Below, piece by piece: positions 1-60,425 of a stretch of DNA of 64,000 bases (the stretch's first letter is position 1; every line of letters begins with the position of its first letter). Both the position numbers and the translations under genes were made by a program. The DNA comes from a virus (lineage: Duplodnaviria; Heunggongvirae; Uroviricota; Caudoviricetes), in IMG/VR virus record IMGVR_UViG_2681813421_000002, positions 1 to 64,000 of that record; one strand, written 5' to 3'. Below the pieces are notes generated by a model, which was not told the origin of the DNA, did no database searches, and saw only the letters and a list, made by a program, of their open reading frames with translations.

Positions 1-3000
1 AGAGCCTGCTCCTGCTGTGGAGTTTTCGGAGTAGAAGGGGATACTTGATCTCCCGGAAGTAGATCAATGATTTCTGTATCGTGATTAACAGTGCGTTTTT
101 GTTGTATGGCTGTTGCGATATCAGCCGCTTGAGAAGCTTTTTTAAATCCAAAAGATTTACCGGTTAAGCCGGATATCTTTTCAGTAAGAGCCTGATCCAT
201 TCCTTTCGCTTTTTCGGAAAGCGAAGATATAGAACCAAACGAAGTAGCCAACGCAAAATCCTTTACCAGGTCCAGACTTGTTCCAGCAAGGCTGGTAGCC
301 GCGCCGCCAAATAAATTACTTGCACCACTGATTCCGCTTTCATTTATTGCGATTAACCGCTCAAGCAAACTCGATGGAGAGCCGGTATTAACATCAGTGT
401 TCTCTGGATTAATCGGTTGTGGTTGGTTACCTGTTTTTTGTGGCTTTTTGACTGCCTGGGCATGTTGTGCAACCTCAATTGGCTGTTGTGTTGCTGTCGG
501 AACGGCATTCAAAACTGGTTGAGCTGGAGATTTTCCATTAGCATATTTTACCTTGCGACCAACACTATATTGCGAATCGCGGGCAATTAGCTGACCACCA
601 TTTTCTTTCTGAATTTTATTAATCCGCGCCAATGTTTCGTCAGAGAATTGTCCCTCCCATAGACCAGTGTTTGTGTTAAATGCTCCAAGTGCGTTCTTAA
701 TGAACTCATTATTAACTGCCGGATTTCCGCCTTCTTTCGTCGCAATTGCACGAACTAATTGCGTCATAACCTCTGGTTTGCTGACATCTATTTTTTCATT
801 AGGCGATACACCAAGATATTTACTGACGTTATCAATATATTGGTTAGTATTGTTCTCATTTGGCGGTGCCCATTTTGAAATGATGCTGGATACCGTCTGT
901 AACTTCTGATATCCCGCTGCGGCACTGGTGCCGTTGTAATAGCTGGAAACCTGGTTTGCCAGTGCCCTGATCCCTTCTTCAGGTGTGTTAAATCGCGCAA
1001 AACGTTGTTCACCTTTTGCATTTGGCGATTCCAGCGTCGCCCCTTCCTGGTTGGCAAAAACAAGATTGCCGAGATTATTATTTCGGTAATTGCGGTTTTT
1101 AGCGTTGCTGCCGCCAATATTCAGATCCGCTGCAATGGTGTTGTTGGCAGGTGAACTAAATTCAGTTGGAGAAGTATACCCGTGCTCACCAACTCCATCC
1201 TCGCCATTACGCCCACCTTGTAATTGTTCACCTAGAGAATGAATCGCATCGACAGTTTTTTTGGTGCCGTCTTCAACAGCTTTTTTTACTTGTTTCGTGT
1301 TTTCGTCAGTGGATAAAAATGTATCCTTAAGGCTACCAAAAACAGATTTGGTGATATCTACCGCGCCGTTAACACCACGAGCAATATCTCCGGTATCAAA
1401 ATTCTGAAGTTTTTCACCTGCTCTTTCAAATCCTAGCGCAGAAATTCCTTTCCCTATCAAGTTCGTTGCGCCCGACACCAAGCCCCCCATATCGAGCACA
1501 TTAGCTGTTGCGTAAGCCGTTTTTTGCTGTTCGGCTACAGCATCATCGTCACTTAATCCAAAGGCTGCCTTTTGCGCATCTGTATCAGTGTAACCATCTA
1601 TAGCGTCATATCCCGCCATAGCCAGCGAACCGATGATAGGGATAGCTCTTGCAGCTGTAGAAGCAGCTGATTTAACACCTATTTTTGCAGCACTTTTGAG
1701 GGCTACGGATTCGGTTTTTTTCTTTGCAACAGTTTCACCTGTTTTAACTGTGGCCTCTTCGGCAACAACACCTGCTGGCTTAACTGCCTTTGCTGTGTTT
1801 TTTGTTTCTTTAGCAATACCCTTAGATGCGTCGCTTGTGGTGCTGATGTCTTTGGCTTTACTAACCTTTGTTTTAACAGTCTTTGCAGCTCCGGCACCAG
1901 CTCCAGCAGCAGCGGTTCCGGCAGCGGCTTTTTCACCAACAGTAAGGGCTTTTTTCCCCAGATTGCGACCTTTCCTTTTCGGTTTGTTCCGTTTATTTTT
2001 ACCAGCCTGATCGCCAATATTGATTTTATTTCTTCTGCTTGCTCGATTTCTCCAGAGATCACTTAAGCCGAACTTATTCCCAGAAGATACTGATTTGCGT
2101 AGCTTAACTACTTCGTCGGAGACATTTTCCAGACCATCAATTATTTTGTTGTCATTGGTCTGAAGAATTTTTGTTTGCTCTTCTACTGCTTGTGCTGATT
2201 TTGTCTCAACAGCATTATTAAATGCTGTTGCAGAGGTTGCTTTTTGAGTATTAACCACCGCCGGATAAGTGATAGCTGGAGATGTCGCTTTCGAAGGTGA
2301 AGCCTCACCTTTCCCCTTTTCTACCCATTCTTTAAGAGATTCTGCTTTACCTGTGATCTCTTTAGTAATGTCGTACATGCCGCGAGCAGCCATCCACAAC
2401 GGACCACCAGCGCCAACACCTGCGGCATCTGTTAAAGACTCTTCACTGGAAGACTGATTGCCATCTACCCCTATAATGGAGCCTAATTTCCGGAGGAAGC
2501 CTTCTTGTAGTTTGGCGTCGGCCTTATGTGCTTTCTGCCATTCTTTTTTTCTGGCTATATCTTCGTTGTTTTTCTGGGATACAAAGCGTCCGTTACTATC
2601 CCGAAGCGGTCCTTTTTGGCTTTGGGGGGATTGTGGTTCAAGAGGAGCAGAATTAGCGGCTAATGGCACAGAACCTTTCAACTTTTGGGCTGACTGGCGT
2701 GATGACGCAAAATGAACGCGCTCTGATGTGTTGGTTGCAACAATGAGACGTTCTTCTCCGTTGTTGACCTGCGTCCTCCCTTTTTTCATCGGAAGGCGTT
2801 TTATATATGGGTTAGCTTGGGTATTCTTGGCATCATCAGAGACATAGGGTTCGCTTGCTATGAGTCTACGGGATAGTCTTTGACTTACTTTACCTTGATT
2901 TTCACCAAGTTGAGTTATAGACCCTCTACCAGAGAGAATGGCGTCTTTGATCTCAGCAAGAGCGTTAAGTTCGTTTGTGCTCGCCCCCTGAATAGCGTCA

Positions 3001-3125
3001 ATTATTGCGATACGGTCTTTATTCTCTTTCAAAATAACCTCTCTTTTGCCAGCGGCGATCAACGTTTCCCGGCTTGAGCTTTGTATTTTTCTTCCAGGGC
3101 TTTTGACATATGGAGTGCTCGCCAT
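1..3125 (-). CDS. Large virion protein, Sit-like tape-measure/injection protein (3' end beyond window edge, >1040 codons)
   Basis: ATG at 3125-3123 on minus strand; frame spot-checked open toward position 1; absent from ORF track, consistent with no stop in window; ORFs 1633-2010(+) and 1703-2062(-) are shadow frames with Ala/Gly/Lys/Pro-rich low complexity; sits at end of tail module. Confidence 0.5.
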   Translation of the reverse strand, partial: MASTPYVKSPGRKIQSSSRETLIAAGKREVILKENKDRIAIIDAIQGASTNELNALAEIKDAILSGRGSITQLGENQGKVSQRLSRRLIASEPYVSDDAKNTQANPYIKRLPMKKGRTQVNNGEERLIVATNTSERVHFASSRQSAQKLKGSVPLAANSAPLEPQSPQSQKGPLRDSNGRFVSQKNNEDIARKKEWQKAHKADAKLQEGFLRKLGSIIGVDGNQSSSEESLTDAAGVGAGGPLWMAARGMYDITKEITGKAESLKEWVEKGKGEASPSKATSPAITYPAVVNTQKATSATAFNNAVETKSAQAVEEQTKILQTNDNKIIDGLENVSDEVVKLRKSVSSGNKFGLSDLWRNRASRRNKINIGDQAGKNKRNKPKRKGRNLGKKALTVGEKAAAGTAAAGAGAGAAKTVKTKVSKAKDISTTSDASKGIAKETKNTAKAVKPAGVVAEEATVKTGETVAKKKTESVALKSAAKIGVKSAASTAARAIPIIGSLAMAGYDAIDGYTDTDAQKAAFGLSDDDAVAEQQKTAYATANVLDMGGLVSGATNLIGKGISALGFERAGEKLQNFDTGDIARGVNGAVDITKSVFGSLKDTFLSTDENTKQVKKAVEDGTKKTVDAIHSLGEQLQGGRNGEDGVGEHGYTSPTEFSSPANNTIAADLNIGGSNAKNRNYRNNNLGNLVFANQEGATLESPNAKGEQRFARFNTPEEGIRALANQVSSYYNGTSAAAGYQKLQTVSSIISKWAPPNENNTNQYIDNVSKYLGVSPNEKIDVSKPEVMTQLVRAIATKEGGNPAVNNEFIKNALGAFNTNTGLWEGQFSDETLARINKIQKENGGQLIARDSQYSVGRKVKYANGKSPAQPVLNAVPTATQQPIEVAQHAQAVKKPQKTGNQPQPINPENTDVNTGSPSSLLERLIAINESGISGASNLFGGAATSLAGTSLDLVKDFALATSFGSISSLSEKAKGMDQALTEKISGLTGKSFGFKKASQAADIATAIQQKRTVNHDTEIIDLLPGDQVSPSTPKTPQQEQA

Positions 3126-3179
3126 TGTGGCAATTGTTCAACGTCACTAACGGGCTGATATCCATACAGAGTCAGGTTG

Positions 3180-4001
3180 TTAATAATGGTTAGCCATCCA
3201 TTCAGATCTAATTGATGGGATAAACTCTCTATTGAGAAAGGGGACGTACAGTGTGGTTGTCACATCTGCACCCTCCTTAGCGTTTTTGCAATGTTGCGGA
3301 GGCAGGATCAGTCGGCTTGAGCCTCTCTCAATAGACATTTTCAGGCCGTGGCGTAGGTCTTTTTGCATAAGCTGTATGCGAGCCACAAGCGGGGTAAATT
3401 CGGTTTCAAGCGCCATGCTTTCAATGATGTCAAAGCGTCGGTTAGCGGCCTGCGTGAAGTCCTCCGGATCGTCTTCAAGCGCCGTGCATAAAGCGAGTTC
3501 AGCAATTCGCATCCGTGCTACGCCAGCACTGTATTCGGGAGTTTTCATATCAGGAAGTGACGCTCGCATTCGTTCAAGGAGTTCCGCGCCTTTCCCGGTT
3601 AATGGTTTAAGTATCCAGTCAGTTGGTACTCCATTTACTGGTACGTTGGTTTTCACGTAAGGAGGTACAGTGAGTATTTCTACTGTTTGGGCCAGGTCGC
3701 TCAGGTTAATATCTGCATGATGCGTATTACCGCAGTGACTGCACTCATAGGAGTAGGTCATTACTGCATCGGGGCGCGAATTAACAAATATCCACCAAAG
3801 AGCAGTTCTGCGGTCCTGAACTGTCCAGTTAGCACTGTCGTTAATTTCACCATCCTGCATAGAGTTAAGGTACTCTGTAGTCGTTGCCTCATCTTCTGCC
3901 GGGTTCAGGTCAGAATATTTCAGCGCATCCTTCACGGTAGGGGCGTGGAACTGAATTTCTGTCTCAGGACGGGAAGGCAATGGGAATTTTGGAATGTTCA
4001 A
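3180..4001 (-). CDS. Hypothetical tail-module protein (CxxC motif)
   Basis: 273-aa ORF co-directional with and immediately upstream of the Sit-like gene; CSHCGNTHH motif; no recognisable family. Confidence 0.5.
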   Translation of the reverse strand: MNIPKFPLPSRPETEIQFHAPTVKDALKYSDLNPAEDEATTTEYLNSMQDGEINDSANWTVQDRRTALWWIFVNSRPDAVMTYSYECSHCGNTHHADINLSDLAQTVEILTVPPYVKTNVPVNGVPTDWILKPLTGKGAELLERMRASLPDMKTPEYSAGVARMRIAELALCTALEDDPEDFTQAANRRFDIIESMALETEFTPLVARIQLMQKDLRHGLKMSIERGSSRLILPPQHCKNAKEGADVTTTLYVPFLNREFIPSIRSEWMANHY

Positions 4002-8773: not shown

Positions 8774-10432
8774 TCAGCGCATCAGAATTGGCTTACCGAC
8801 GATTCGGCGAGCTGTACCGGTCGGACAAACAGACCAGGCCACTTCCCACAGATCGATGTCCTTTTGGACAACCTGAACAACATATGGATCTTCACCCTGG
8901 GACTTGTCACGTGGAGTAACCAGCGCACCGGCTGCAACGTAACGGTCAAGCAATTCAGTCATTGCTTTCATTAGCGCTTCTTTGGTAATGCCATCCGGTT
9001 CGTGCTTAATCGCCTGAGCTACTTCATAGAAATCTCTGGCGATGGCGTTCATCAAGGAAGACACATGCTGGAATCGCAGATAGTTGTTTTTGCTGTAAGT
9101 TGTTAAAGAGTCGTCAATGTAAACGGACCCGTCAGCAGCAACTGAAACTGGATTAATGCGCGCAAGAACGAACGCTTCACGATCAACTGCACCGATATTT
9201 GGAATTCGGGCAATGTTCTGTCGATCAATAATCGCGCGTGATATACCTGCCGGTGCGTAATGCCAACCACCAACATCCGGTACCAGCGCCACTCCTTTTG
9301 CCTTCGCTACGAATGCGTCGCAGCTAATGCCATAGACGACATTCATTCCAGTGAAAGTATCTCGGCAGGAGAGCGGGAAGTAGTAACGGCTTGGTTGATG
9401 TGAGCCGCCAAAACTATGGCTTTTCGCTTCTGAAATAGCGTTTTCAGGTGTCTGGTTGCCCTTCAGGTCATAGAACATGTCTACGCGAACATCTTCAGCC
9501 AGCTTTTTGATTGCGGCTAAGGCGGATGCGTCATAACAACCCAATGACAGCAATGCGGTGTAATTAACCTCTGAAGCTTCGAGAACCTTTAATGCTTCCA
9601 GATAGTCTGCAGCGGCAATTTCGGACAGATTTCCATCAGTACCACCTTCAAAAGCCACATCCTCAAAAATGAGTTGAGCAGCGGATGCTTCTGCATTATC
9701 TGCCAGTACGGCACCAATGCGAGTGGACTGGCTTTCAAGCAGTGTCGGAATCCATGCTGGTTGGCCCATGTCGTTGGTGCCTTCTGGATTGAAAGACACT
9801 TGGTGGCTTTCCAGCACCTCAATGGACCCATCGGTTTTTTTTTCTTTCAGCGTCAGCGTAAAGAGTTCGCTTTCTTCATCATCGCGAGTTAGTGATAACG
9901 TGCGATTTTGAGATGCATCACCATCTTTGATGAAGAATAATGCCTTCTCTCCACCTTTAATCTGGGGCGTCTCTTTGGGTGTGAAGGTCACTGATTGAGT
10001 CGTTGCAGTTGGAGCAACACCAACGCTTAATGTGTCACCTGGATTTGCTGTGGTTTCAGTAGGTTCAACGGAAAGTTCTTTGCTCGCCTTTGCCGCTTTT
10101 GCTTTGCCCACAACGGAAACAGAAATACCCGGCACCTTCATGTCTTTAGCGCAAACTCGAACGACATATCCAGAGCCGCCTTTTACTGCACGCTCCACGT
10201 GGCGATATGGTTCAAATGCCGCGCCCAGGCGAGGGTGAATCGGTGAACCTAATACGCTTTGATAAGTCGTATCGTCAACTTTCAGTACCTTACCCGGTGC
10301 GCCACGACGCGATATTACAAGCCCAGCAAAGACGGATGCGCCACCGCTGGTATTGGTGAGGGTAGCGTCAGCATTTACTGACATTACAGCAACGCCAGCT
10401 GCCTGCCCTACCGAAAAACTAATCTTATTCAT
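8774..10432 (-). CDS. Contractile tail sheath protein candidate
   Basis: 552 aa; C-terminal region has GGWHY...PAG... pattern resembling conserved C-terminal domain of P2 FI-type sheath proteins (recalled, not aligned). Confidence 0.45.
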   Translation of the reverse strand: MNKISFSVGQAAGVAVMSVNADATLTNTSGGASVFAGLVISRRGAPGKVLKVDDTTYQSVLGSPIHPRLGAAFEPYRHVERAVKGGSGYVVRVCAKDMKVPGISVSVVGKAKAAKASKELSVEPTETTANPGDTLSVGVAPTATTQSVTFTPKETPQIKGGEKALFFIKDGDASQNRTLSLTRDDEESELFTLTLKEKKTDGSIEVLESHQVSFNPEGTNDMGQPAWIPTLLESQSTRIGAVLADNAEASAAQLIFEDVAFEGGTDGNLSEIAAADYLEALKVLEASEVNYTALLSLGCYDASALAAIKKLAEDVRVDMFYDLKGNQTPENAISEAKSHSFGGSHQPSRYYFPLSCRDTFTGMNVVYGISCDAFVAKAKGVALVPDVGGWHYAPAGISRAIIDRQNIARIPNIGAVDREAFVLARINPVSVAADGSVYIDDSLTTYSKNNYLRFQHVSSLMNAIARDFYEVAQAIKHEPDGITKEALMKAMTELLDRYVAAGALVTPRDKSQGEDPYVVQVVQKDIDLWEVAWSVCPTGTARRIVGKPILMR

Positions 10433-12623: not shown

Positions 12624-12753
12624 GGTTAAGCCCTAAATTCGGGCGCGGCGTGAAGGTTCTTTTGACGGGCTAACAATACCTACTTTGTGATTTAGTCAAT
12701 AGGTTTAGTAAAATAAAATATATTAACACGCATGTTGTTATGTGATTTAATTT

Positions 12754-32118: not shown

Positions 32119-32511
32119 TTGAAAAGATTGGCTATTGCTTTACTGGCGTCTTTCCCTTTGATCGCGAGCGCCGGAAATTTACAAGTTAAGTGCGGTCGGT
32201 TTGATATAAAAATCTATCCAGATGCCATATTTCTGAATGGGAATAAGGTTGATAACGCACACCGAAAAACTGAATCTGACGTAATGAGCTATGTGTTCCA
32301 GGAGTATGCGGAGATGGGGGGAACTTACACGCTGTACTCGCTGGATGTTCCTTCTCGCGGTGATATGACATTATCCCATCAATGGCAGAACGCCGATGGC
32401 GAAGCTCTGCGCGAGGTTAAAACAGAAAAATGTGGCACTTTCCATTCTTTTAAAGGGAAAGCGCCAAATGTTAAATCTGTGCTTGAAAAACAGCGCGCAG
32501 GTGAGCTTTAA
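32119..32511 (+). CDS. Secreted/periplasmic protein, unknown function
   Basis: TTG start with GGAGG RBS; signal peptide MKRLAIALLASFPLIASA; 130 aa. Confidence 0.5.
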   Translation: MKRLAIALLASFPLIASAGNLQVKCGRFDIKIYPDAIFLNGNKVDNAHRKTESDVMSYVFQEYAEMGGTYTLYSLDVPSRGDMTLSHQWQNADGEALREVKTEKCGTFHSFKGKAPNVKSVLEKQRAGEL

Positions 32512-32819
32512 ACACCTTTAACCACGGAGATGCCGTTTCCTGCACGATAGCGGCGGGGAACGGAATTCTCCATCAGGTCACGAATTACTCCCGCCTCATG
32601 TAGTTCCTCTGTTTCCCAGTATCTGTTTGTCACCAGATCGAGGCTGGCTATGACCTTGTGCCGGTCATTCGGCATAGCCAATTTTTCTGCTATAACCATC
32701 AGTGAAAACTCTTCATCCAGTAGGATTTGATACCAGACTTTTGACAGTTCCAACTCTCTAATGAGGGTGAAGCGCCGCTCAAGTGTGGCGGCAGAATAAG
32801 TGAAATCTATTTTTTTCAT
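32508..32819 (-). CDS. Hypothetical protein downstream of antirepressor
   Basis: 103-aa ORF; GC hairpin CCCCGGCG/CGCCGGGG at 32850-32868 separates it from the Rha gene. Confidence 0.4.
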   Translation of the reverse strand: MKKIDFTYSAATLERRFTLIRELELSKVWYQILLDEEFSLMVIAEKLAMPNDRHKVIASLDLVTNRYWETEELHEAGVIRDLMENSVPRRYRAGNGISVVKGV

Positions 32820-32878
32820 CGTGCGGATAATCCGATTATTTGGCAGTTAAATCCCCGGCGTCGCCGGGGATGCAGCAT

Positions 32879-33820
32879 TTAACTAACAATCCAGTCCATA
32901 GCAATAACATCCTCTGGAGCTAAATCAATAGCATGGATTTTCCCGTCACGGATGGTGCGCCAGTGCTTTCGTGATCCACCTTCGGGCCACACCCATATAC
33001 CTTCAGGCCAGGAAGAACGACGACACACTGTTGCGTATCCAGTCCTGATCTTCTCTCTGACGGTATGTAGTGACAGATTATCCTTTGGGCTTTCAGGCAC
33101 AGGATGGTGGATTGCCTGAAACATCCCCATCTTTGGATGATACCAGCGTTTATTGCGTGGTTCTGCCTCCGACATCACCTGCTTAAAGGCTTTCCGGAAG
33201 GGGGCCAGGGCCACAATGGAGCGTCGCGCAAGCAAACCATCTGGAGTTAAAAACTCATGCGTATCGGTGGGAATCCGGAAAGCGTTAACCAGGTTGCGAC
33301 ATTTGGCTTCAGTCAGGCCACATTTCGCCGCCAGCTGGCGGTAGCCAATGTAGCCTTCCGGAATATTGCCTTTCTTTATTTGCTCGAGTGTTTCAGCGAC
33401 CATCGATACTTGTGCTGATACCTCGGCTACCTGGGCATTTACGGCGTTGATCCGGCGTTCATGCTCAAGATGCATTTGCGCCATTTCAGCCAGGATTTCG
33501 GCTTTTGATTTTAACTGTACCCGGGCATTCTCCAGTTCGCGCCAGCGGTCCACCAGCCGGGCGGTGAATTCCGGAGAGAGCTGCGCGACGACAATGATGC
33601 TGTCTCGTTTTCCTTGTTCGCCTTCAAATATGTAAGCCTTGGAAAATCGACGAGGGCCAACTGATTGTTTATTTTCAATTTCCACAGATTGTGGAAATTG
33701 GATCACACTCTTTTTAGCCAGTGTTTCGATAGTTCTCTTCACACTATCTTGGCGACTTCCTACCAGTTCCGCGATCTCAATGCTGGTCATTGTCGCTTTT
33801 TGAGAGATGGACAGATTCAT
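32879..33820 (-). CDS. Rha-family phage regulatory protein / antirepressor candidate
   Basis: N-terminal MTSIEIAELVGSRQDSVKRTIETL matches Rha/pRha family pattern; translationally coupled to upstream small ORF; position analogous to P1 ant. Confidence 0.65.
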   Translation of the reverse strand: MNLSISQKATMTSIEIAELVGSRQDSVKRTIETLAKKSVIQFPQSVEIENKQSVGPRRFSKAYIFEGEQGKRDSIIVVAQLSPEFTARLVDRWRELENARVQLKSKAEILAEMAQMHLEHERRINAVNAQVAEVSAQVSMVAETLEQIKKGNIPEGYIGYRQLAAKCGLTEAKCRNLVNAFRIPTDTHEFLTPDGLLARRSIVALAPFRKAFKQVMSEAEPRNKRWYHPKMGMFQAIHHPVPESPKDNLSLHTVREKIRTGYATVCRRSSWPEGIWVWPEGGSRKHWRTIRDGKIHAIDLAPEDVIAMDWIVS

Positions 33821-34035
33821 CAGTGCACCTCCACGCAGTTCATTGGCAGATTCCAGTAATTGAGGATCTCCATCGCATCAAGAGTGAAGCGTGCGGCAAA
33901 AATGCAGGGTTCTTCAGGAAGGTATGAACGAGCTTCTGCTTCGGTTGCAGCCATGACGCAGATATACAGGTGTTTTTGGCAGGAATAGAAACGCCAGATA
34001 AATTCAGAATGAGTTGGGGTAGGGATAGTAGCCAT
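33820..34035 (-). CDS. Small protein coupled to antirepressor (Icd-like position)
   Basis: 71 aa; AAGGAGG RBS; stop overlaps Rha start (ATGA); P1 icd overlaps ant similarly. Confidence 0.45.
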   Translation of the reverse strand: MATIPTPTHSEFIWRFYSCQKHLYICVMAATEAEARSYLPEEPCIFAARFTLDAMEILNYWNLPMNCVEVH

Positions 34036-34039
34036 ATTG

Positions 34040-34327
34040 GCAGCCTCCTTTTGCTAATTTAAGGAGCTACCGCGTGAGGTTCCAATCTCAATGGCGGTAG
34101 CACTGACTGGGTTGGAACTACCGGCGCAAAAGGGAACCGGCCTGCCTTTCGGCAGCCCAGCCAGCACTACCATTGATCTCTGAGCTAAACGCTACGTATG
34201 GCTGTGCGATGGCATGACACAAGAAAAGACGCTTTCGGCGTCTGTGTCGCCTTTTGCATTATCCGGGGTTCCAATCCCGGCACCCGTTTTTCTAAGGTGC
34301 CGTAGAAATATACCCCACGATAATGCC
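34040..34327 (-). other. ORF-free structured region between two small immI-like ORFs
   Basis: Multiple mutually complementary GC-rich segments (AGCTACCGCG/CGCGGTAGC pairs etc.); no plausible ORF. Confidence 0.3.
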
Positions 34328-34495
34328 AGGGCGCAACAGTCAGTATTTTATGCTTTGGCGGATTTCTTCCGGGCTTGCTTGCAGGCGTAGGCCATTGCTT
34401 TAGCTTTCACTTCATCCAGCTTCCCGGTAATCACTTCTTTTCCGAGAGTGACAAACCAGTCATAGCAACCGCCAGTAATGTTCTTGATTTGAAAG
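34328..34495 (-). CDS. Small protein (55 aa)
   Basis: ATG at 34495 with GGGGGAG RBS; product MTVRYLNFQIKNITGGCYDWFVTLGKEVITGKLDEVKAKAMAYACKQARKKSAKA; below track cutoff. Confidence 0.4.
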
Positions 34496-34835
34496 TTGAG
34501 GTAGCGAACAGTCATTTTGACTCCCCCAGCGCGAATAAAGAATGCAGATTATCGCGTGAGTGGTGGACGACGAGTGATGGGAAAAGACTGTAGTTGTTCA
34601 TAGTGTAGTGACTCCTTGCTTTCGGAGCCGCCATCGACTGTTCCACGGTCTGGTGGCGGCGCAATAAAGGCTGGAACACCGTGAGTCAACGGGGGCTTTT
34701 CAGCCACCTATATTGCACCGCCATAGGTATGGCGGGGGCAATAATACGAAAAACTAAACAGTTTGTCTCAAAAAGTTGACCGGTGTGCCAATCGGTAGTG
34801 AATGTACATCGGAGAAATTTACAATTCAACTTAAA
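34496..34835 (-). ncRNA. Long structured 5' leader, candidate c4-like antisense regulatory RNA
   Basis: About 330 nt between operator motif and small ORF, several hairpins (GCCATACCTATGGCGG, GCCGCCACC...GGTGGCGGC); analogous to P1 immI where c4 RNA precedes icd-ant. Confidence 0.25.
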
Positions 34836-34837
34836 AT

Positions 34838-34851
34838 GTTAGAAAACTAAT
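34838..34851 (-). promoter_or_regulatory. Operator-like motif (TTAGTTTTCTAACA on minus strand)
   Basis: TCTAACA core, heads the immI-like transcription unit. Confidence 0.5.
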
Positions 34852-35425
34852 TTATTAATTCAATCGCCATCTGATACAACGCCATTTCATCGGCATTGTG
34901 CCGTATGAAATCTGCTTTTCCGCCTATTTTTCCATCAGCATGAACAGGGACCAGCCAGGGATATTGTTCTCGGACCTCGGCTGGCGCTGCGTACTGGTGG
35001 TGCCATTTACACAAAGGGAGGACATATTTATGTGCGTTCTCTGCCGTTCTCCCGAAGATATGGTGCAGGGATACCACTGGGCTATGTTGCCCGTGAATAT
35101 GGCAGGCAATGCAGGGGAGAGTACCGATAGCGGTCTGTATCCGGCGTTCATCGGCTGTGAGTGATCTGCCCTTCAGGCCGCGTGACGTGCGTGTTTTTTT
35201 GGGCGGAGCGGATACAGCTTTATCTTTTCTCCGCTGTTCATATTGCTTTGCTTTTTCAATTTTCTTTTGCCGATATTCAGGCGATGCGGCTTTTTCTCTC
35301 GCTCGCTGCTGCTGGCGTTGAGCTTGTTGAAGGCGCTTTGCCCTTTGTTCCTCTCGCCAGGCTGGGTCAGCCAATTTTTGCATGGCTTTTTGTCTCTGTT
35401 TCTCCCAATAGCTCTGTTTCTGCAT
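34847..35425 (-). CDS. Ref-like HNH endonuclease (P1 ref-like)
   Basis: Highly basic low-complexity N-terminal half plus C-terminal Cys/His cluster CIACHIHGQH...HHIFG...CKWHH typical of HNH; operator motifs on both flanks (P1 ref is C1-controlled). Confidence 0.5.
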   Translation of the reverse strand: MQKQSYWEKQRQKAMQKLADPAWREEQRAKRLQQAQRQQQRAREKAASPEYRQKKIEKAKQYEQRRKDKAVSAPPKKTRTSRGLKGRSLTADERRIQTAIGTLPCIACHIHGQHSPVVSLHHIFGRTAENAHKYVLPLCKWHHQYAAPAEVREQYPWLVPVHADGKIGGKADFIRHNADEMALYQMAIELIN

Positions 35426-35489
35426 GATGGCTGCCTCTTACTTTTCAGCTATTTTTCTATGATTGATCAAAACAGTTAGATATTCAAAA

Positions 35490-35509
35490 TTGATTTTCTA
35501 ACACAAAAC
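35490..35509 (+). promoter_or_regulatory. Operator-like motif TTGATTTTCTAACACAAAAC
   Basis: TCTAACA core in divergent intergenic region between the Ref-like gene and plus-strand operon. Confidence 0.5.
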
Positions 35510-58318: not shown

Positions 58319-58394
58319 TGGTGGCCCCTACCGGACTTGAACCGGTGACCGTGCGATTATGAGTCGCCAGCTCTAACCACTGAGCTAAAGGGCC
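58319..58394 (-). tRNA. tRNA with CAU anticodon, tRNA-Ile2 (lysidine)-like
   Basis: Cloverleaf with encoded CCA; resembles E. coli ileX as recalled. Confidence 0.85.
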
Positions 58395-58421
58395 GGATTA
58401 CTGCCAATTTTGCTTACGCTT

Positions 58422-59249
58422 TTATTTCACCGGAACAAACGGAACAGCGGCATTACTGGTCATATACTGCGGTAATGTACCGTTCCATTTGTTGATCGCT
58501 TCCAACTCCATAACACCGGGGTTCTGGCGCAGAGCTTCACCACGTAAACGAATGGCATCAGCTTCGGCCTGGGCTTTTGTGCGAATAGCATCAGCCTGTC
58601 CGGCAGCTTCCGCGCGCAGCATGTTGGCCTCTGCTTCACGTTGTTTGACCTCTTGCTCGCGTTGCAGGGTTTTTTGGTTTGCCGTAACTTTGGCGTTAAT
58701 ACTGTCAATAACTGTTGGCGGATATTCTGGCTTACCTACATAAGAGAGGCTCATCACCTGAATGCCGATTGGCGTCATTTCTTCCTGAATGTCTTTAAGG
58801 GCTGCATCAAGCAATTCAGATTTGCCACCGTCGATAAATTTGTCGGTGGTCATTTTGCTGGCTAACCGGTTCAGAGCATCTGCAACCTTCTGGCGTAGAT
58901 CGGTATCAGTAATATCATCTACACCTTTGCGATAGGTCTGAAATACCGTTGTGACTTTTGCTGGATCAACCTTGTAGGCTACGCCGATGTGGTAACCAAT
59001 GGTTGTTCCGTCGCTCATCTGGAAGCTGAACGGCTCATCGTATGTCTTCATTTGCTTAAAGGTCGGGAAGATATAAACTTCAGTATTCAAGCCTGTCCAG
59101 TAGCGACCAACACCAACTACTTCACCGATACCTTTATCATCCCCCAGCTTATTTACTTTGATCCCTACGTTACCTGGCTCTACCCGATCGCATCCGGTCA
59201 GACATAAAGAACCCAAAATAATCGCTGCACTAATCAACGTTTTTTTCAT
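58422..59249 (-). CDS. SPFH/band-7 (prohibitin-like) domain lipoprotein
   Basis: Lipoprotein signal peptide with lipobox LTGC; SPFH-like core followed by Ala/Glu/Gln-rich coiled-coil tail. Confidence 0.6.
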   Translation of the reverse strand: MKKTLISAAIILGSLCLTGCDRVEPGNVGIKVNKLGDDKGIGEVVGVGRYWTGLNTEVYIFPTFKQMKTYDEPFSFQMSDGTTIGYHIGVAYKVDPAKVTTVFQTYRKGVDDITDTDLRQKVADALNRLASKMTTDKFIDGGKSELLDAALKDIQEEMTPIGIQVMSLSYVGKPEYPPTVIDSINAKVTANQKTLQREQEVKQREAEANMLRAEAAGQADAIRTKAQAEADAIRLRGEALRQNPGVMELEAINKWNGTLPQYMTSNAAVPFVPVK

Positions 59250-59466
59250 TAATTAATTTCCTGGTTTTTTCACGAAAAAAGACTACTGCGAAAGCCGGGT
59301 AAATGAGCGCGAGAAGGACTCCCAACAATACAAGTATTGTGCTGTTAGATGAGATCATATTTGGCAAAAGCCAAACATACAGAACCAGTGACACAATCAA
59401 ACAGAGGACGGCATAAATATATAACCGCACCCATAGCGTTCGACATTTGTTCGGATTGTTCTGCAT
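59230..59466 (-). CDS. Small two-TM membrane protein, operon partner of SPFH lipoprotein
   Basis: 78 aa, two hydrophobic helices; overlaps SPFH start by 20 nt; GGAG RBS. Confidence 0.5.
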   Translation of the reverse strand: MQNNPNKCRTLWVRLYIYAVLCLIVSLVLYVWLLPNMISSNSTILVLLGVLLALIYPAFAVVFFREKTRKLINEKNVD

Positions 59467-59728
59467 CCTCTCACTCCATTATTTAACGAATAAAAAAGCT
59501 GCGGTGCCGGGTACCTCCCGGTGTCCTTTGGCTGGTTATCCACCGTGGACGGGGAAACAAGGAGAAATGAATGGACTGATATAACCATTTCCCCGCGTGC
59601 GCTTAGCCGCATTCACCGCAATGGTAAGAGCACTTGGCTGGCTGGGCGGCGATGACGCCTGTACGCATTTGGTGATCCGGTTCTGCTTCCGGCATTCGCT
59701 TAATTAGCCAAATACTCTTAACGTTGCA

Positions 59729-59815
59729 CTGGCGGAGAGTAATGGAATCGAACCATCATCGCTTGCGCAATGGGACGGTTTTCAAGACCGCTTGAGCACC
59801 ATGCTCCCTACTCTC
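59729..59815 (-). tRNA. tRNA-Ser (anticodon UGA)
   Basis: 87 nt, long variable arm, anticodon loop CUUGAAA, encoded CCA. Confidence 0.85.
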
Positions 59816-60188
59816 CCGTTATTGTGGCGACCGGTGCTGATCTCCGGCTTGCGGTTATTTCAGACTCTCACGGGCGTTTAATTGCCCCGCCGAACAGCTC
59901 TTTTCCGCAATAGCTGCAATGTCTTTCGCGCATCAGCCTGCGCATTCACCACAATGTTGAGAACACTGGTTGTCACGCTGCAACGCAACATTTATTCATA
60001 GATTGGGATATGACCCCGTTACGCCAGTGTTCTCAACGTTGTAGTGCCGGTTACGGTTCCGGCCAGGCCTCTTCCTCAACGGGGTGTTCTCCATACGGAC
60101 TACCGTTTATTGGTCGTTCCTGCGGTTTATGTTGTGAAGCCAGATGCTTATCTTCTGGTTGCTTCAAAGAGCTGCACTTCATCACAAC

Positions 60189-60262
60189 GGTAAGGGTACT
60201 TCGTAGGGATTCGAACCCTCTGCCAAGCACGGCGATCTCCGACGTCGCAAAATACCCTTACC
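60189..60262 (-). other. tRNA-like fragment (T-arm GGTTCGAATCC with 7-bp terminal pairing, no canonical D/anticodon arms)
   Basis: GGTAAGG...GAGGGTTCGAATCCCT...CCTTACC; fails cloverleaf, no CCA. Confidence 0.35.
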
Positions 60263-60270
60263 TGTTGTGT

Positions 60271-60347
60271 TGGTGCCGGTTAACGGACTCGAACCGCTGA
60301 CATCCTGCTTACAAGGCAGGCGCTCTACCAACTGAGCTAAACCGGCA
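60271..60347 (-). tRNA. tRNA-Thr (anticodon UGU)
   Basis: Cloverleaf with anticodon loop CUUGUAA and encoded CCA. Confidence 0.8.
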
Positions 60348-60348
60348 T

Positions 60349-60425
60349 TGGCGATGGTGGGTGGATTCGAACCACCGACCGACAGCTTAGAAGGCTGCTG
60401 CTCTATCCTACTGAGCTACACCATC
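60349..60425 (-). tRNA. tRNA-Arg (anticodon UCU, reads AGA)
   Basis: Anticodon loop CUUCUAA, T-loop GGTTCGAATCC, encoded CCA; 1 nt from tRNA-Thr. Confidence 0.85.

Follow-up and report, generated by a model that had tools for sequence, protein, structure and literature searches.

The closest described systems for the locus reported here are the immunity regions of P1 and P7, P4, and Gifsy-1. In the immI region of P1, the GenBank order of parts is Op51, P51a/b, a1, b1, c4, a2, b2, icd, and ant, and a processed antisense RNA, C4, represses icd-ant translation. The translational block in P1 is reported to cause Rho-dependent termination, and the C4 recognition sequences determine P1/P7 heteroimmunity. 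P4 immunity is reported to act by transcription termination. Summaries of the P1 C4 mechanism are available (PMC8198154, PMC12197685). In Gifsy-1, the short IsrK RNA activates downstream translation, with G28/G31 paired to C159/C162 of the long transcript, as validated by mutation (Hershko-Shalev et al., 2016; PMC4825925). Here we analyzed positions 32879-34851 of a 64,000-nucleotide (nt) stretch of DNA, hereafter “the window,” which corresponds to positions 1 to 64,000 of the IMG/VR virus record IMGVR_UViG_2681813421_000002. A first-pass annotation, made from the sequence alone, had proposed that this minus-strand unit is an immI-like antirepressor locus with a long structured leader and possible antisense RNA control. 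We conclude, with a probability of about 80%, that the region is an immI-type operon serving secondary immunity in a D6-like phage-plasmid, and that it contains two C4 antisense-RNA modules in series. The window is 95.5% identical at the nucleotide level (positions 32500-35500) to phage D6, a plasmid prophage and P1 relative, and positions 34300-34860 are 100% identical to the Escherichia coli plasmid pRHB39-C21_3 (CP057047.1, 93,415 bp). All features described below are on the minus strand unless stated otherwise.

The downstream module (module 2) accounts for a segment that the first-pass annotation described as 290 nt, GC-rich, structured, and free of open reading frames (ORFs), and considered a candidate riboregulator. 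Both statements held. The segment without credible ORFs (34036-34347) is 312 nt long and has a GC content of 52.9%, compared with 47.6% for the window, and positions 34036-34300 fold with z = -4.9 relative to shuffled sequences. It includes a C4 antisense RNA (C4#2, 34090-34177, 59% GC) that matched Rfam RF01695 over its full length with 76.7 bits (cut-off 45, E = 3e-13) and zero non-canonical pairs flagged. The mature RNA is predicted to span approximately 34093-34171. Its recognition sequences are the loop b′ (CCUUUUGC) and the junction a′ (GUUCCAA). We limited the search for exact complements to two parts of C4, the loop of hairpin 2 and the junction after it; an RNAduplex comparison of the whole C4 with the transcript was discarded, as unfolding of the C4 stem dominated the result. 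Site names follow the P1 GenBank annotation, in which a2 lies just 3′ of c4 and b2 on the icd ribosome binding site (RBS). In module 2, a2 (UUGGAAC, 34079-34085) is complementary to the junction and is located just 3′ of C4, and b2 (GCAAAAGG, 34047-34054) is complementary to the loop and overlaps the Shine-Dalgarno sequence AAGGAGG (34044-34050) of the icd-like gene. When the downstream stretch was dinucleotide-shuffled 20,000 times, both sites were placed correctly only twice. The offset of a2 from the C4 3′ end equals that in Stx F039, phiP27, and P4, and P1-like contigs and the phages RCS47 and JL22 carry near-identical copies of C4#2 ahead of their icd homologues.

Upstream of C4#2 is an isrK-type 5′ leader (34222-34300), identified with Rfam isrK RF01394 (59.4 bits, cut-off 50). 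This match overlaps a weaker match (22.4 bits) to c4-a1b1 (RF03163), the Rfam family for upstream copies of C4 target sites. The leader has the two 5′ hairpins and the terminator hairpin with U-tract that, with a score over the cut-off, define isrK. The site a1 (UUGGAAC, 34268-34274) is in the loop of leader hairpin 2 and is followed by b1 (GCAAAAGG, 34250-34257); the pair repeats a2 and b2 exactly. At the end of the leader, a terminator scan detected an intrinsic terminator hairpin (34227-34243) followed by the U-tract TTTCTT. In the minimum-energy fold of the unprocessed precursor, a1/b1 are paired in cis with the C4 recognition sequences.

The upstream module (module 1) lies in the leader that the first-pass annotation had described as structured and about 330 nt long. 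Its length (336 nt up to the ATG of a 55-amino-acid (aa) ORF) and structure (z = -3.7 relative to shuffles over the 198 nt at 34598-34795) agree with that description, but it contains a 29-aa ORF and is not GC-rich as a whole (46.7%). We detected in this leader a second C4-like antisense RNA (C4#1, 34649-34728) that matched RF01695 over the full model length at a relaxed threshold (40.2 bits, E = 1.2e-5). As this score is below the Rfam threshold, we refer to it as C4-like and not as a curated member of the family. Its homologues in D6, RL465, pHX138, and a Shigella dysenteriae plasmid scored 38-43 bits. In C4#1, a 17-bp closing stem with a single U-U mismatch surrounds two short hairpins, and a CCACCA tail lies 3′; by analogy with P1 the mature RNA is predicted at approximately 34652-34722. 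Its recognition sequences, loop b′ (UGACUC) and junction a′ (UGUUCCA), differ from those of C4#2, and each has its own target. The a2 site (UGGAACA, 34639-34645) is complementary to the junction and starts 6 nt past the predicted C4#1 3′ end, which is the geometry of the annotated P1 a2. The b2 site (GAGUCA, 34609-34614) is complementary to the loop and overlaps the Shine-Dalgarno sequence AAGGAG (34612-34617) of the 29-aa ORF, which starts at 34601. Both sites were placed correctly in 8 of 20,000 shuffles. The complementarity of the leader segments to RBS regions, anticipated before any of these searches, is exact in both modules. Among 22 variants, 16% of the columns of C4#1 are variable vs 67-100% in the leader upstream of it, so that no other non-coding part of the leader is as conserved as C4#1, and a′, b′, a2, and b2 of module 1 are invariant.

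Three other candidate features in module 1 were rejected. GAGUCAA (34517-34523) is on the Shine-Dalgarno sequence of the 55-aa ORF and could be read as a second b site, but it is not conserved in D6 and RL465 and was taken as a chance match. In an upstream a1/b1-like pairing, where ACACCG and GUCAAC (34775-34786) pair with C4#1 in the minimum-energy fold, only CACCG is conserved. The T-run of a terminator-like hairpin at 34778-34793 is not conserved.

We compared eight C4 modules, those of P1, P7, the D6-like C4A locus (a third module on the same plasmid, described below), Stx F039, phiP27, and P4 (CI), and the two in the window. The recognition sequences differ in all eight, and in 8/8 modules a2 is 5-9 nt and b2 33-40 nt past C4, with b2 on the Shine-Dalgarno sequence. 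Cognate combinations of recognition and target sequences have 13-16 paired bases, and non-cognate combinations mostly have 0-12. The match between recognition and target sequences across the eight modules is intermolecular covariation, and the leader copy C4#1 obeys it. When we scanned the whole 93-kb plasmid (the window and the other 29.5 kb), each paired a+b site was found only at its own locus, with two site pairs for C4#2, two for C4A, and one for C4#1.

Covariation within the RNA was counted on the closing stem only, in register across sequences and without a covariance model of our own, because MAFFT misregistered the second hairpin between P1-type and P4-type C4s. Across 10 C4 sequences, including three C4#1 variants, 98.8% of the cells of the closing stem are paired, and 10 of the 17 pairs have double-sided changes. 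None of 500 shuffles reached the stem result, and controls in which the stem was slid were 36-58% paired. The covariance across homologous loci that the earlier note looked to is thus present for the closing stem family-wide; within the C4#1 lineage, the four distinct sequences contained no double-sided change to judge by. Two sequence features, a 5′ context of UAUGG/AAUGG that is conserved and a tail with CCA that follows the stem, hint at the RNase P excision by which C4 RNAs are released as a stable species of about 77 nt that represses in trans.

The site b2 of module 2 precedes a 71-aa Icd-like ORF (33820-34035), identified by NCBIfam NF033153 (49.4 bits, cut-off 25) and assigned to phrog_1426. 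The RefSeq record of D6 names the counterpart of this ORF Icd-like, and the family is annotated as a host cell-division inhibitor. Two scans of a genome contig collection, with the Icd-like protein alone and as an alignment, returned no match; taxonomic spread was taken from PLSDB, IMG/VR, and a phage collection. Downstream is the gene of a 313-aa protein (32879-33820) that matched phrog_63, “anti-repressor Ant” (205.8 bits, E = 2.9e-60). It is 65% identical to the antirepressor of the other c4-icd locus of the plasmid, and that paralogue is annotated as Rha family. The icd stop and the ant start overlap by 1 nt (TGATG). The coupling of the two genes was thus described correctly in the first-pass annotation but its junction was not; the ATGA it named occurs instead between the 29-aa and 55-aa ORFs. 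A GC-rich hairpin (CCCCGG-CGACG-CCGGGG, 32853-32869) followed by AUUUAA was read from the sequence beyond the antirepressor gene. It may, tentatively, be the terminator of the unit; the terminator scan did not list it, given its weak U-run.

The 29-aa ORF of module 1 (34512-34601) is a deletion remnant of an Icd-like gene, and its stop codon overlaps the start of the 55-aa ORF. At the same position, pHX138 and the Shigella plasmid have a full 61-aa Icd-like ORF (NF033153, 48.1 bits) followed by a homologue of the 55-aa ORF, with no second module and no antirepressor at that place. In the window, D6, and RL465, deletions have cut this icd to 29 codons. The 55-aa ORF (34348-34515; phrog_7786, 146 bits), already called in the first-pass annotation, is present in all the relatives compared and has homologues in 16 protein clusters, nearly all from E. 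coli/Salmonella contigs of approximately 90 kb; its range is thus essentially that of this plasmid type. It differs from its counterpart in the Shigella plasmid by 13 synonymous and 6 non-synonymous codons, and 15 of the 23 nucleotide differences are at third positions. Judged from these changes, it is a real coding sequence under purifying selection, and we regard it as the conserved protein payload of module 1. An AlphaFold model (predicted local distance difference test score (pLDDT) 84.6) has four strands and a C-terminal helix. It had no PDB fold match at E < 0.001, and Pfam, NCBIfam, and PHROGs assigned no function to the protein. At the junction of the two ORFs (34512-34530) we noted an indel polymorphism in a G-run. 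In some plasmids the frames are fused, giving products of 83, 84, and 85 aa that differ in the number of glycines.

The unit is headed by the motif TTAGTTTTCTAACA (34837-34850), as had been pointed out before, where it overlaps the stop codon of the Ref-like gene. Allowing up to 2 mismatches, the window has 12 copies vs 0.61 expected, a number reached in 0 of 100 shuffles. The motif is kept in five diverged relatives, and the sequence flanking it varies. At several of the other sites it sits between -35-like and -10-like hexamers. The 12 copies probably serve as operators for the C1-type repressor of D6-like phages, which would bind to them. The P1 C1 operator consensus ATTGCTCTAATAAATTT had 0 matches in the window with up to 3 mismatches allowed. 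Where P1 immI has a C1 operator at its upstream promoter, the window has a different, 12-copy motif in the equivalent place. The other copies are at window positions 12753, 23390, 35490, 40061, 51024, 52347, 52434, 56868, 61644, 62893, and 63936.

We identified three candidate promoters. The upstream candidate (34802-34830), which was read from the sequence, has a -35 of TTGAAT (34825-34830), a 17-nt spacer, and a -10 of TACATT (34802-34807). It begins 6 nt downstream of the operator motif, its hexamers are conserved in the alignment of relatives, and it would be the positional analogue of the C1-controlled P51a of P1. The second candidate (34741-34769), with GAGACA, a 17-nt spacer, and TATTAT, agreed with the consensus at 9/12 positions in the promoter scan. 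Its sequence GAGACAAA is invariant across the five diverged relatives, and it would initiate transcription a few bases upstream of C4#1. The putative promoter of module 2 (34307-34336) has a -35 of TTGCGC (34331-34336), an 18-nt spacer, and a -10 of TATATT (34307-34312), with a predicted start at approximately 34300, and no operator motif is near it. A comparable -35/-10 pair, at equal distance to the first hairpin, occurs in P1, P4, Stx F039, phiP27, P1-like contigs, and the D6-like C4A locus. By position it is homologous to P51b of P1 (annotated P1c4/P51b).

From these features we infer how the operon may work. Module 2 (34336-32879) would be transcribed from its own promoter, with some transcripts ending at the intrinsic terminator of the leader as a short RNA. 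Read-through transcripts would carry C4#2, presumably excised by RNase P as in P1. Pairing of b′ and a′ of C4#2 with b2 and a2 would cover the icd Shine-Dalgarno sequence and block icd translation, and the block would extend to the antirepressor via the stop/start overlap, probably with Rho-dependent polarity as in P1. With the antirepressor off, the prophage repressor would be active and the prophage would stay repressed. The a1/b1 leader, in cis or as the short RNA, probably competes for the C4 recognition sequences and could set a derepression threshold. It probably counteracts C4. Gifsy-1 IsrK pairs likewise (a1 loop with C4 junction) and activates translation, and for IsrK such an effect on the threshold has been shown experimentally. 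Module 1 (34850-34348) would be transcribed from the promoter beside the repressor-operator-like motif. By analogy, C4#1 would repress the icd remnant together with the coupled or fused 55-aa protein, and it may in addition reduce the upstream transcription that reads through into module 2.

Several observations weigh against parts of this interpretation. The antirepressor function of the 313-aa protein is suggested by family annotation and gene order, and the protein has no similarity to P1 Ant1 (BLASTP E = 0.32) or to Gifsy-1 AnrP. Its N-terminal match to Pfam PF09669 (Phage_pRha; residues 11-98, whole profile covered) scored 28.1 bits (E = 3e-6), just under the gathering score of 29.9; the earlier call of a Rha-family antirepressor therefore agrees with phrog_63 and falls short on the Pfam model. 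The operator-adjacent promoter has only 8/12 consensus positions, is absent from the promoter scan listing, and is beside the motif and not under it. The remaining points concern module 1. The second hairpin of C4#1 is short (4 bp). A scan of the whole plasmid found no a1/b1 copy upstream of C4#1. The C4#1 lineage consists of only 4 distinct sequences, with 0 pairs changed on both sides. Together with the score of 40.2 bits against a Rfam gathering score of 45, and with the truncation of the icd that C4#1 formerly controlled, these features would fit a different account, in which only module 2 works, C4#1 is left over from a duplicated c4-icd cassette and is decaying, and no RNA controls expression of the 55-aa ORF. 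Module 1 could be decaying because its icd is truncated to 29 aa in the window, and the gene is intact in pHX138 and the Shigella plasmid. Against the relic account stands what module 1 has kept: the 17-bp stem is intact save for the one U-U pair, the RNA has far fewer variable columns (16%) than the adjacent leader (67-100%), the four recognition and target sequences are invariant and still complementary (8/20,000 shuffles), and the ORF with b2 on its Shine-Dalgarno sequence continues, by coupling or by fusion, into a protein maintained by purifying selection. We consider the relic account possible but doubtful. The proposal that the first structured segment is a riboregulator has to this extent been borne out, as the segment is of C4 type and has its own a2/b2 sites, with the reservation that it scored below the cut-off.

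A different question is whether the C4 RNAs act mainly by RBS occlusion or, like the CI RNA of P4, by pairing with repeated targets on the nascent transcript and causing premature transcription termination. Module 2 resembles the P4/Stx/phiP27 type more closely in sequence than it does P1: the P4 C4 and isrK elements scored 74.9 and 60.8 bits, the AGGAGGCUGCCAUNAUGGCUAC context is shared, and an intrinsic terminator lies between a1/b1 and C4. The exact position of b2 on the Shine-Dalgarno sequence in every module examined speaks for occlusion, and the two modes are not exclusive, as the example of P1 indicates. A predominantly P4-like action is, in our view, unlikely. A third alternative, that no riboregulator is present and that the segments fold by chance or as leaders generally do, has in its favor only that a z-score is by itself no proof of function. 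This explanation is very hard to reconcile with the matches to two curated covariance models over their cut-offs, with targets that covary with the recognition sequences in eight modules, with shuffle tests that back the placement of the sites, and with a closing stem that covaries family-wide, and we give it almost no weight.

A larger reading of the immI-type operon, which we offer as speculation and think improbable in its entirety, is a three-RNA circuit in which two orthogonal C4s in series are combined with a terminated a1/b1 (isrK-type) decoy. C4#1 would insulate and the short RNA would titrate C4#2; with the third C4 of the plasmid, there would be three non-cross-reacting locks on two paralogous antirepressors. 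If true, C4#1 would block translation of the icd remnant and the 55-aa ORF, and the polarity this causes on transcripts from the operator-controlled promoter, or on read-through from ref, would insulate the antirepressor, and titration of C4#2 by the isrK-like short RNA would set the derepression threshold. IsrK/orf45 of Gifsy-1 would then be a decoy-against-C4 system, an interpretation absent from the paper that describes it (PMC4825925).

Copies related to the leader region (34300-34860) were found in 119 PLSDB plasmids from Escherichia, Salmonella, and Shigella. The RefSeq record of D6 lists here a Ref-like nuclease, three hypothetical coding sequences (CDSs), the Icd-like protein, anti-repressor Ant, and a pmgF-like gene, with zero RNA genes at the locus and hypothetical CDSs covering the RNAs. 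Homologues of c4, icd, and the antirepressor gene have been reported from the D6-like plasmid pYU39_89, along with another c4/icd region (PMC6799933). We found no published description of a tandem divergent C4 in the leader in the literature searched, which did not cover the D6 genome paper. What is new here is limited to the conserved sub-threshold C4 paralogue in tandem with a canonical copy and to the precise target map; the rest is a known system. In public records, CDSs are annotated over the RNA genes at window positions 34054-34173 (minus strand) and 34214-34390 (plus strand). The record of plasmid RL465 has a 39-aa “ash family protein” CDS over C4, and that of D6 has a hypothetical orf84 over the RNA genes on the opposite strand. 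As the 39-aa ORF matched no NCBIfam model, these CDS annotations over the C4 and leader RNA genes are probably spurious calls. Elsewhere in the window, a cluster of four tRNAs (Met-CAT, Ser-TGA, Thr-TGT, and Arg-TCT) is encoded on the minus strand at 58319-60425; ARAGORN detected 4/4 and Rfam 3/4.

The results confirm that a reader given nothing but raw sequence could recognize an immI-type RNA switch. D6-like phage-plasmids are common in E. coli, Salmonella, and Shigella, and the components of their secondary immunity locus are now listed exactly. The results also show that the Rfam gathering threshold misses a conserved C4 paralogue, C4#1. As recognition sequences set P1/P7 heteroimmunity, the list of three C4s predicts which antirepressors would be cross-repressed among co-resident or superinfecting relatives.

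In comparison with P1, the window has the same order of parts and the same geometry. Shared by the two are an upstream promoter associated with an operator and another promoter before a1/b1 (both candidates in the window), a C4 with a long closing stem, a2 just 3′ of C4, b2 on the icd Shine-Dalgarno sequence, and icd directly downstream of c4 and translationally coupled to the antirepressor. Unlike in P1 and P7, the recognition sequences are different and Ant is unrelated to Ant1/Ant2, and unlike in P1, an extra C4 module and a small ORF lie between the operator and the main module. We interpret the locus as a paralogue and not an orthologue of P1 immI, because the P1-orthologous c4 region sits elsewhere on the same plasmid. 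This third module (C4A), on CP057047.1 outside the window (9433-9674 of that part of the plasmid), adjoins repL and includes c4-a1b1 (55.9 bits), C4 (69.6 bits), an Icd-like gene, and a 235-aa Rha-family gene. Its RNA region is 90% identical to that of P1 and 88% to that of P7, and the module is the genuine orthologue of P1/P7 immI. The loop of the third C4 (UCGUAAGU) is unlike the P1 and P7 loops. Accordingly, the proposal that the locus mirrors P1 immI is right in the order of parts, the C4, and the icd-ant coupling, and requires revision for orthology, the antirepressor, and the operator.

Module 2 is, on its family matches, of the isrK+C4 type, which P4, phiP27, Stx phages, and Gifsy-1 share. 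Two P1-like phages, RCS47 and JL22, also have the cassette at a second locus, and its occurrence in RCS47 indicates that it moves between P1-like and D6-like elements. In RCS47 (2001-3600 of the sequence analyzed), the unannotated isrK+C4+icd-start cassette is 88% identical to module 2 and lies between pacB and c1, followed by a gene for a 371-aa antirepressor. P4 has the same type of leader and C4 (CI), the same a2/b2 spacing, and shared sequence around the Shine-Dalgarno sequence and start, including AGGAGGCUGCCAUNAUGGCUAC downstream of b2. The regulated genes differ: P4 controls a replication (alpha) operon and the window an icd-ant pair.

The IsrK-orf45-AnrP region of Gifsy-1 (PMC4825925) resembles module 2: each starts with an isrK leader that has a separate promoter and a leaky intrinsic terminator, and a C4 homologue and an antirepressor gene come next. 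In both, the leader a1 pairs with the C4 junction. Gifsy-1 is without icd, and the target site is on the anrP Shine-Dalgarno sequence, where we noted a b2-like AUCACC. An Hfq-binding short isrK RNA that activates translation in trans has been reported for Gifsy-1 only (PMC4825925). In the same study, the C4 region is taken for an ORF of 45 codons, and neither C4 nor P1 is mentioned. In the Gifsy-1 sequence (NC_010392, 34131-34316, minus strand), transcript nt 103-186 are a C4 homologue (69 bits) overlapped by orf45, whose first AUG belongs to the UAUGG that is conserved at the 5′ end of C4. The pairing of G28/G31 with C159/C162 corresponds to the a1 loop (UUGGCG) and the C4 junction (CGCCAA), and the published numbering fits exactly. 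The isrK and c4-a1b1 models overlap at every locus examined, namely in the window (34222-34313), P1, P7, P4, the D6-like locus, and Gifsy-1, and therefore describe one 5′ leader; isrK is absent from the Rfam C4 clan CL00128. Recognizing isrK as the a1/b1 leader of a C4 module joins two literatures that were kept apart in a 2025 review.

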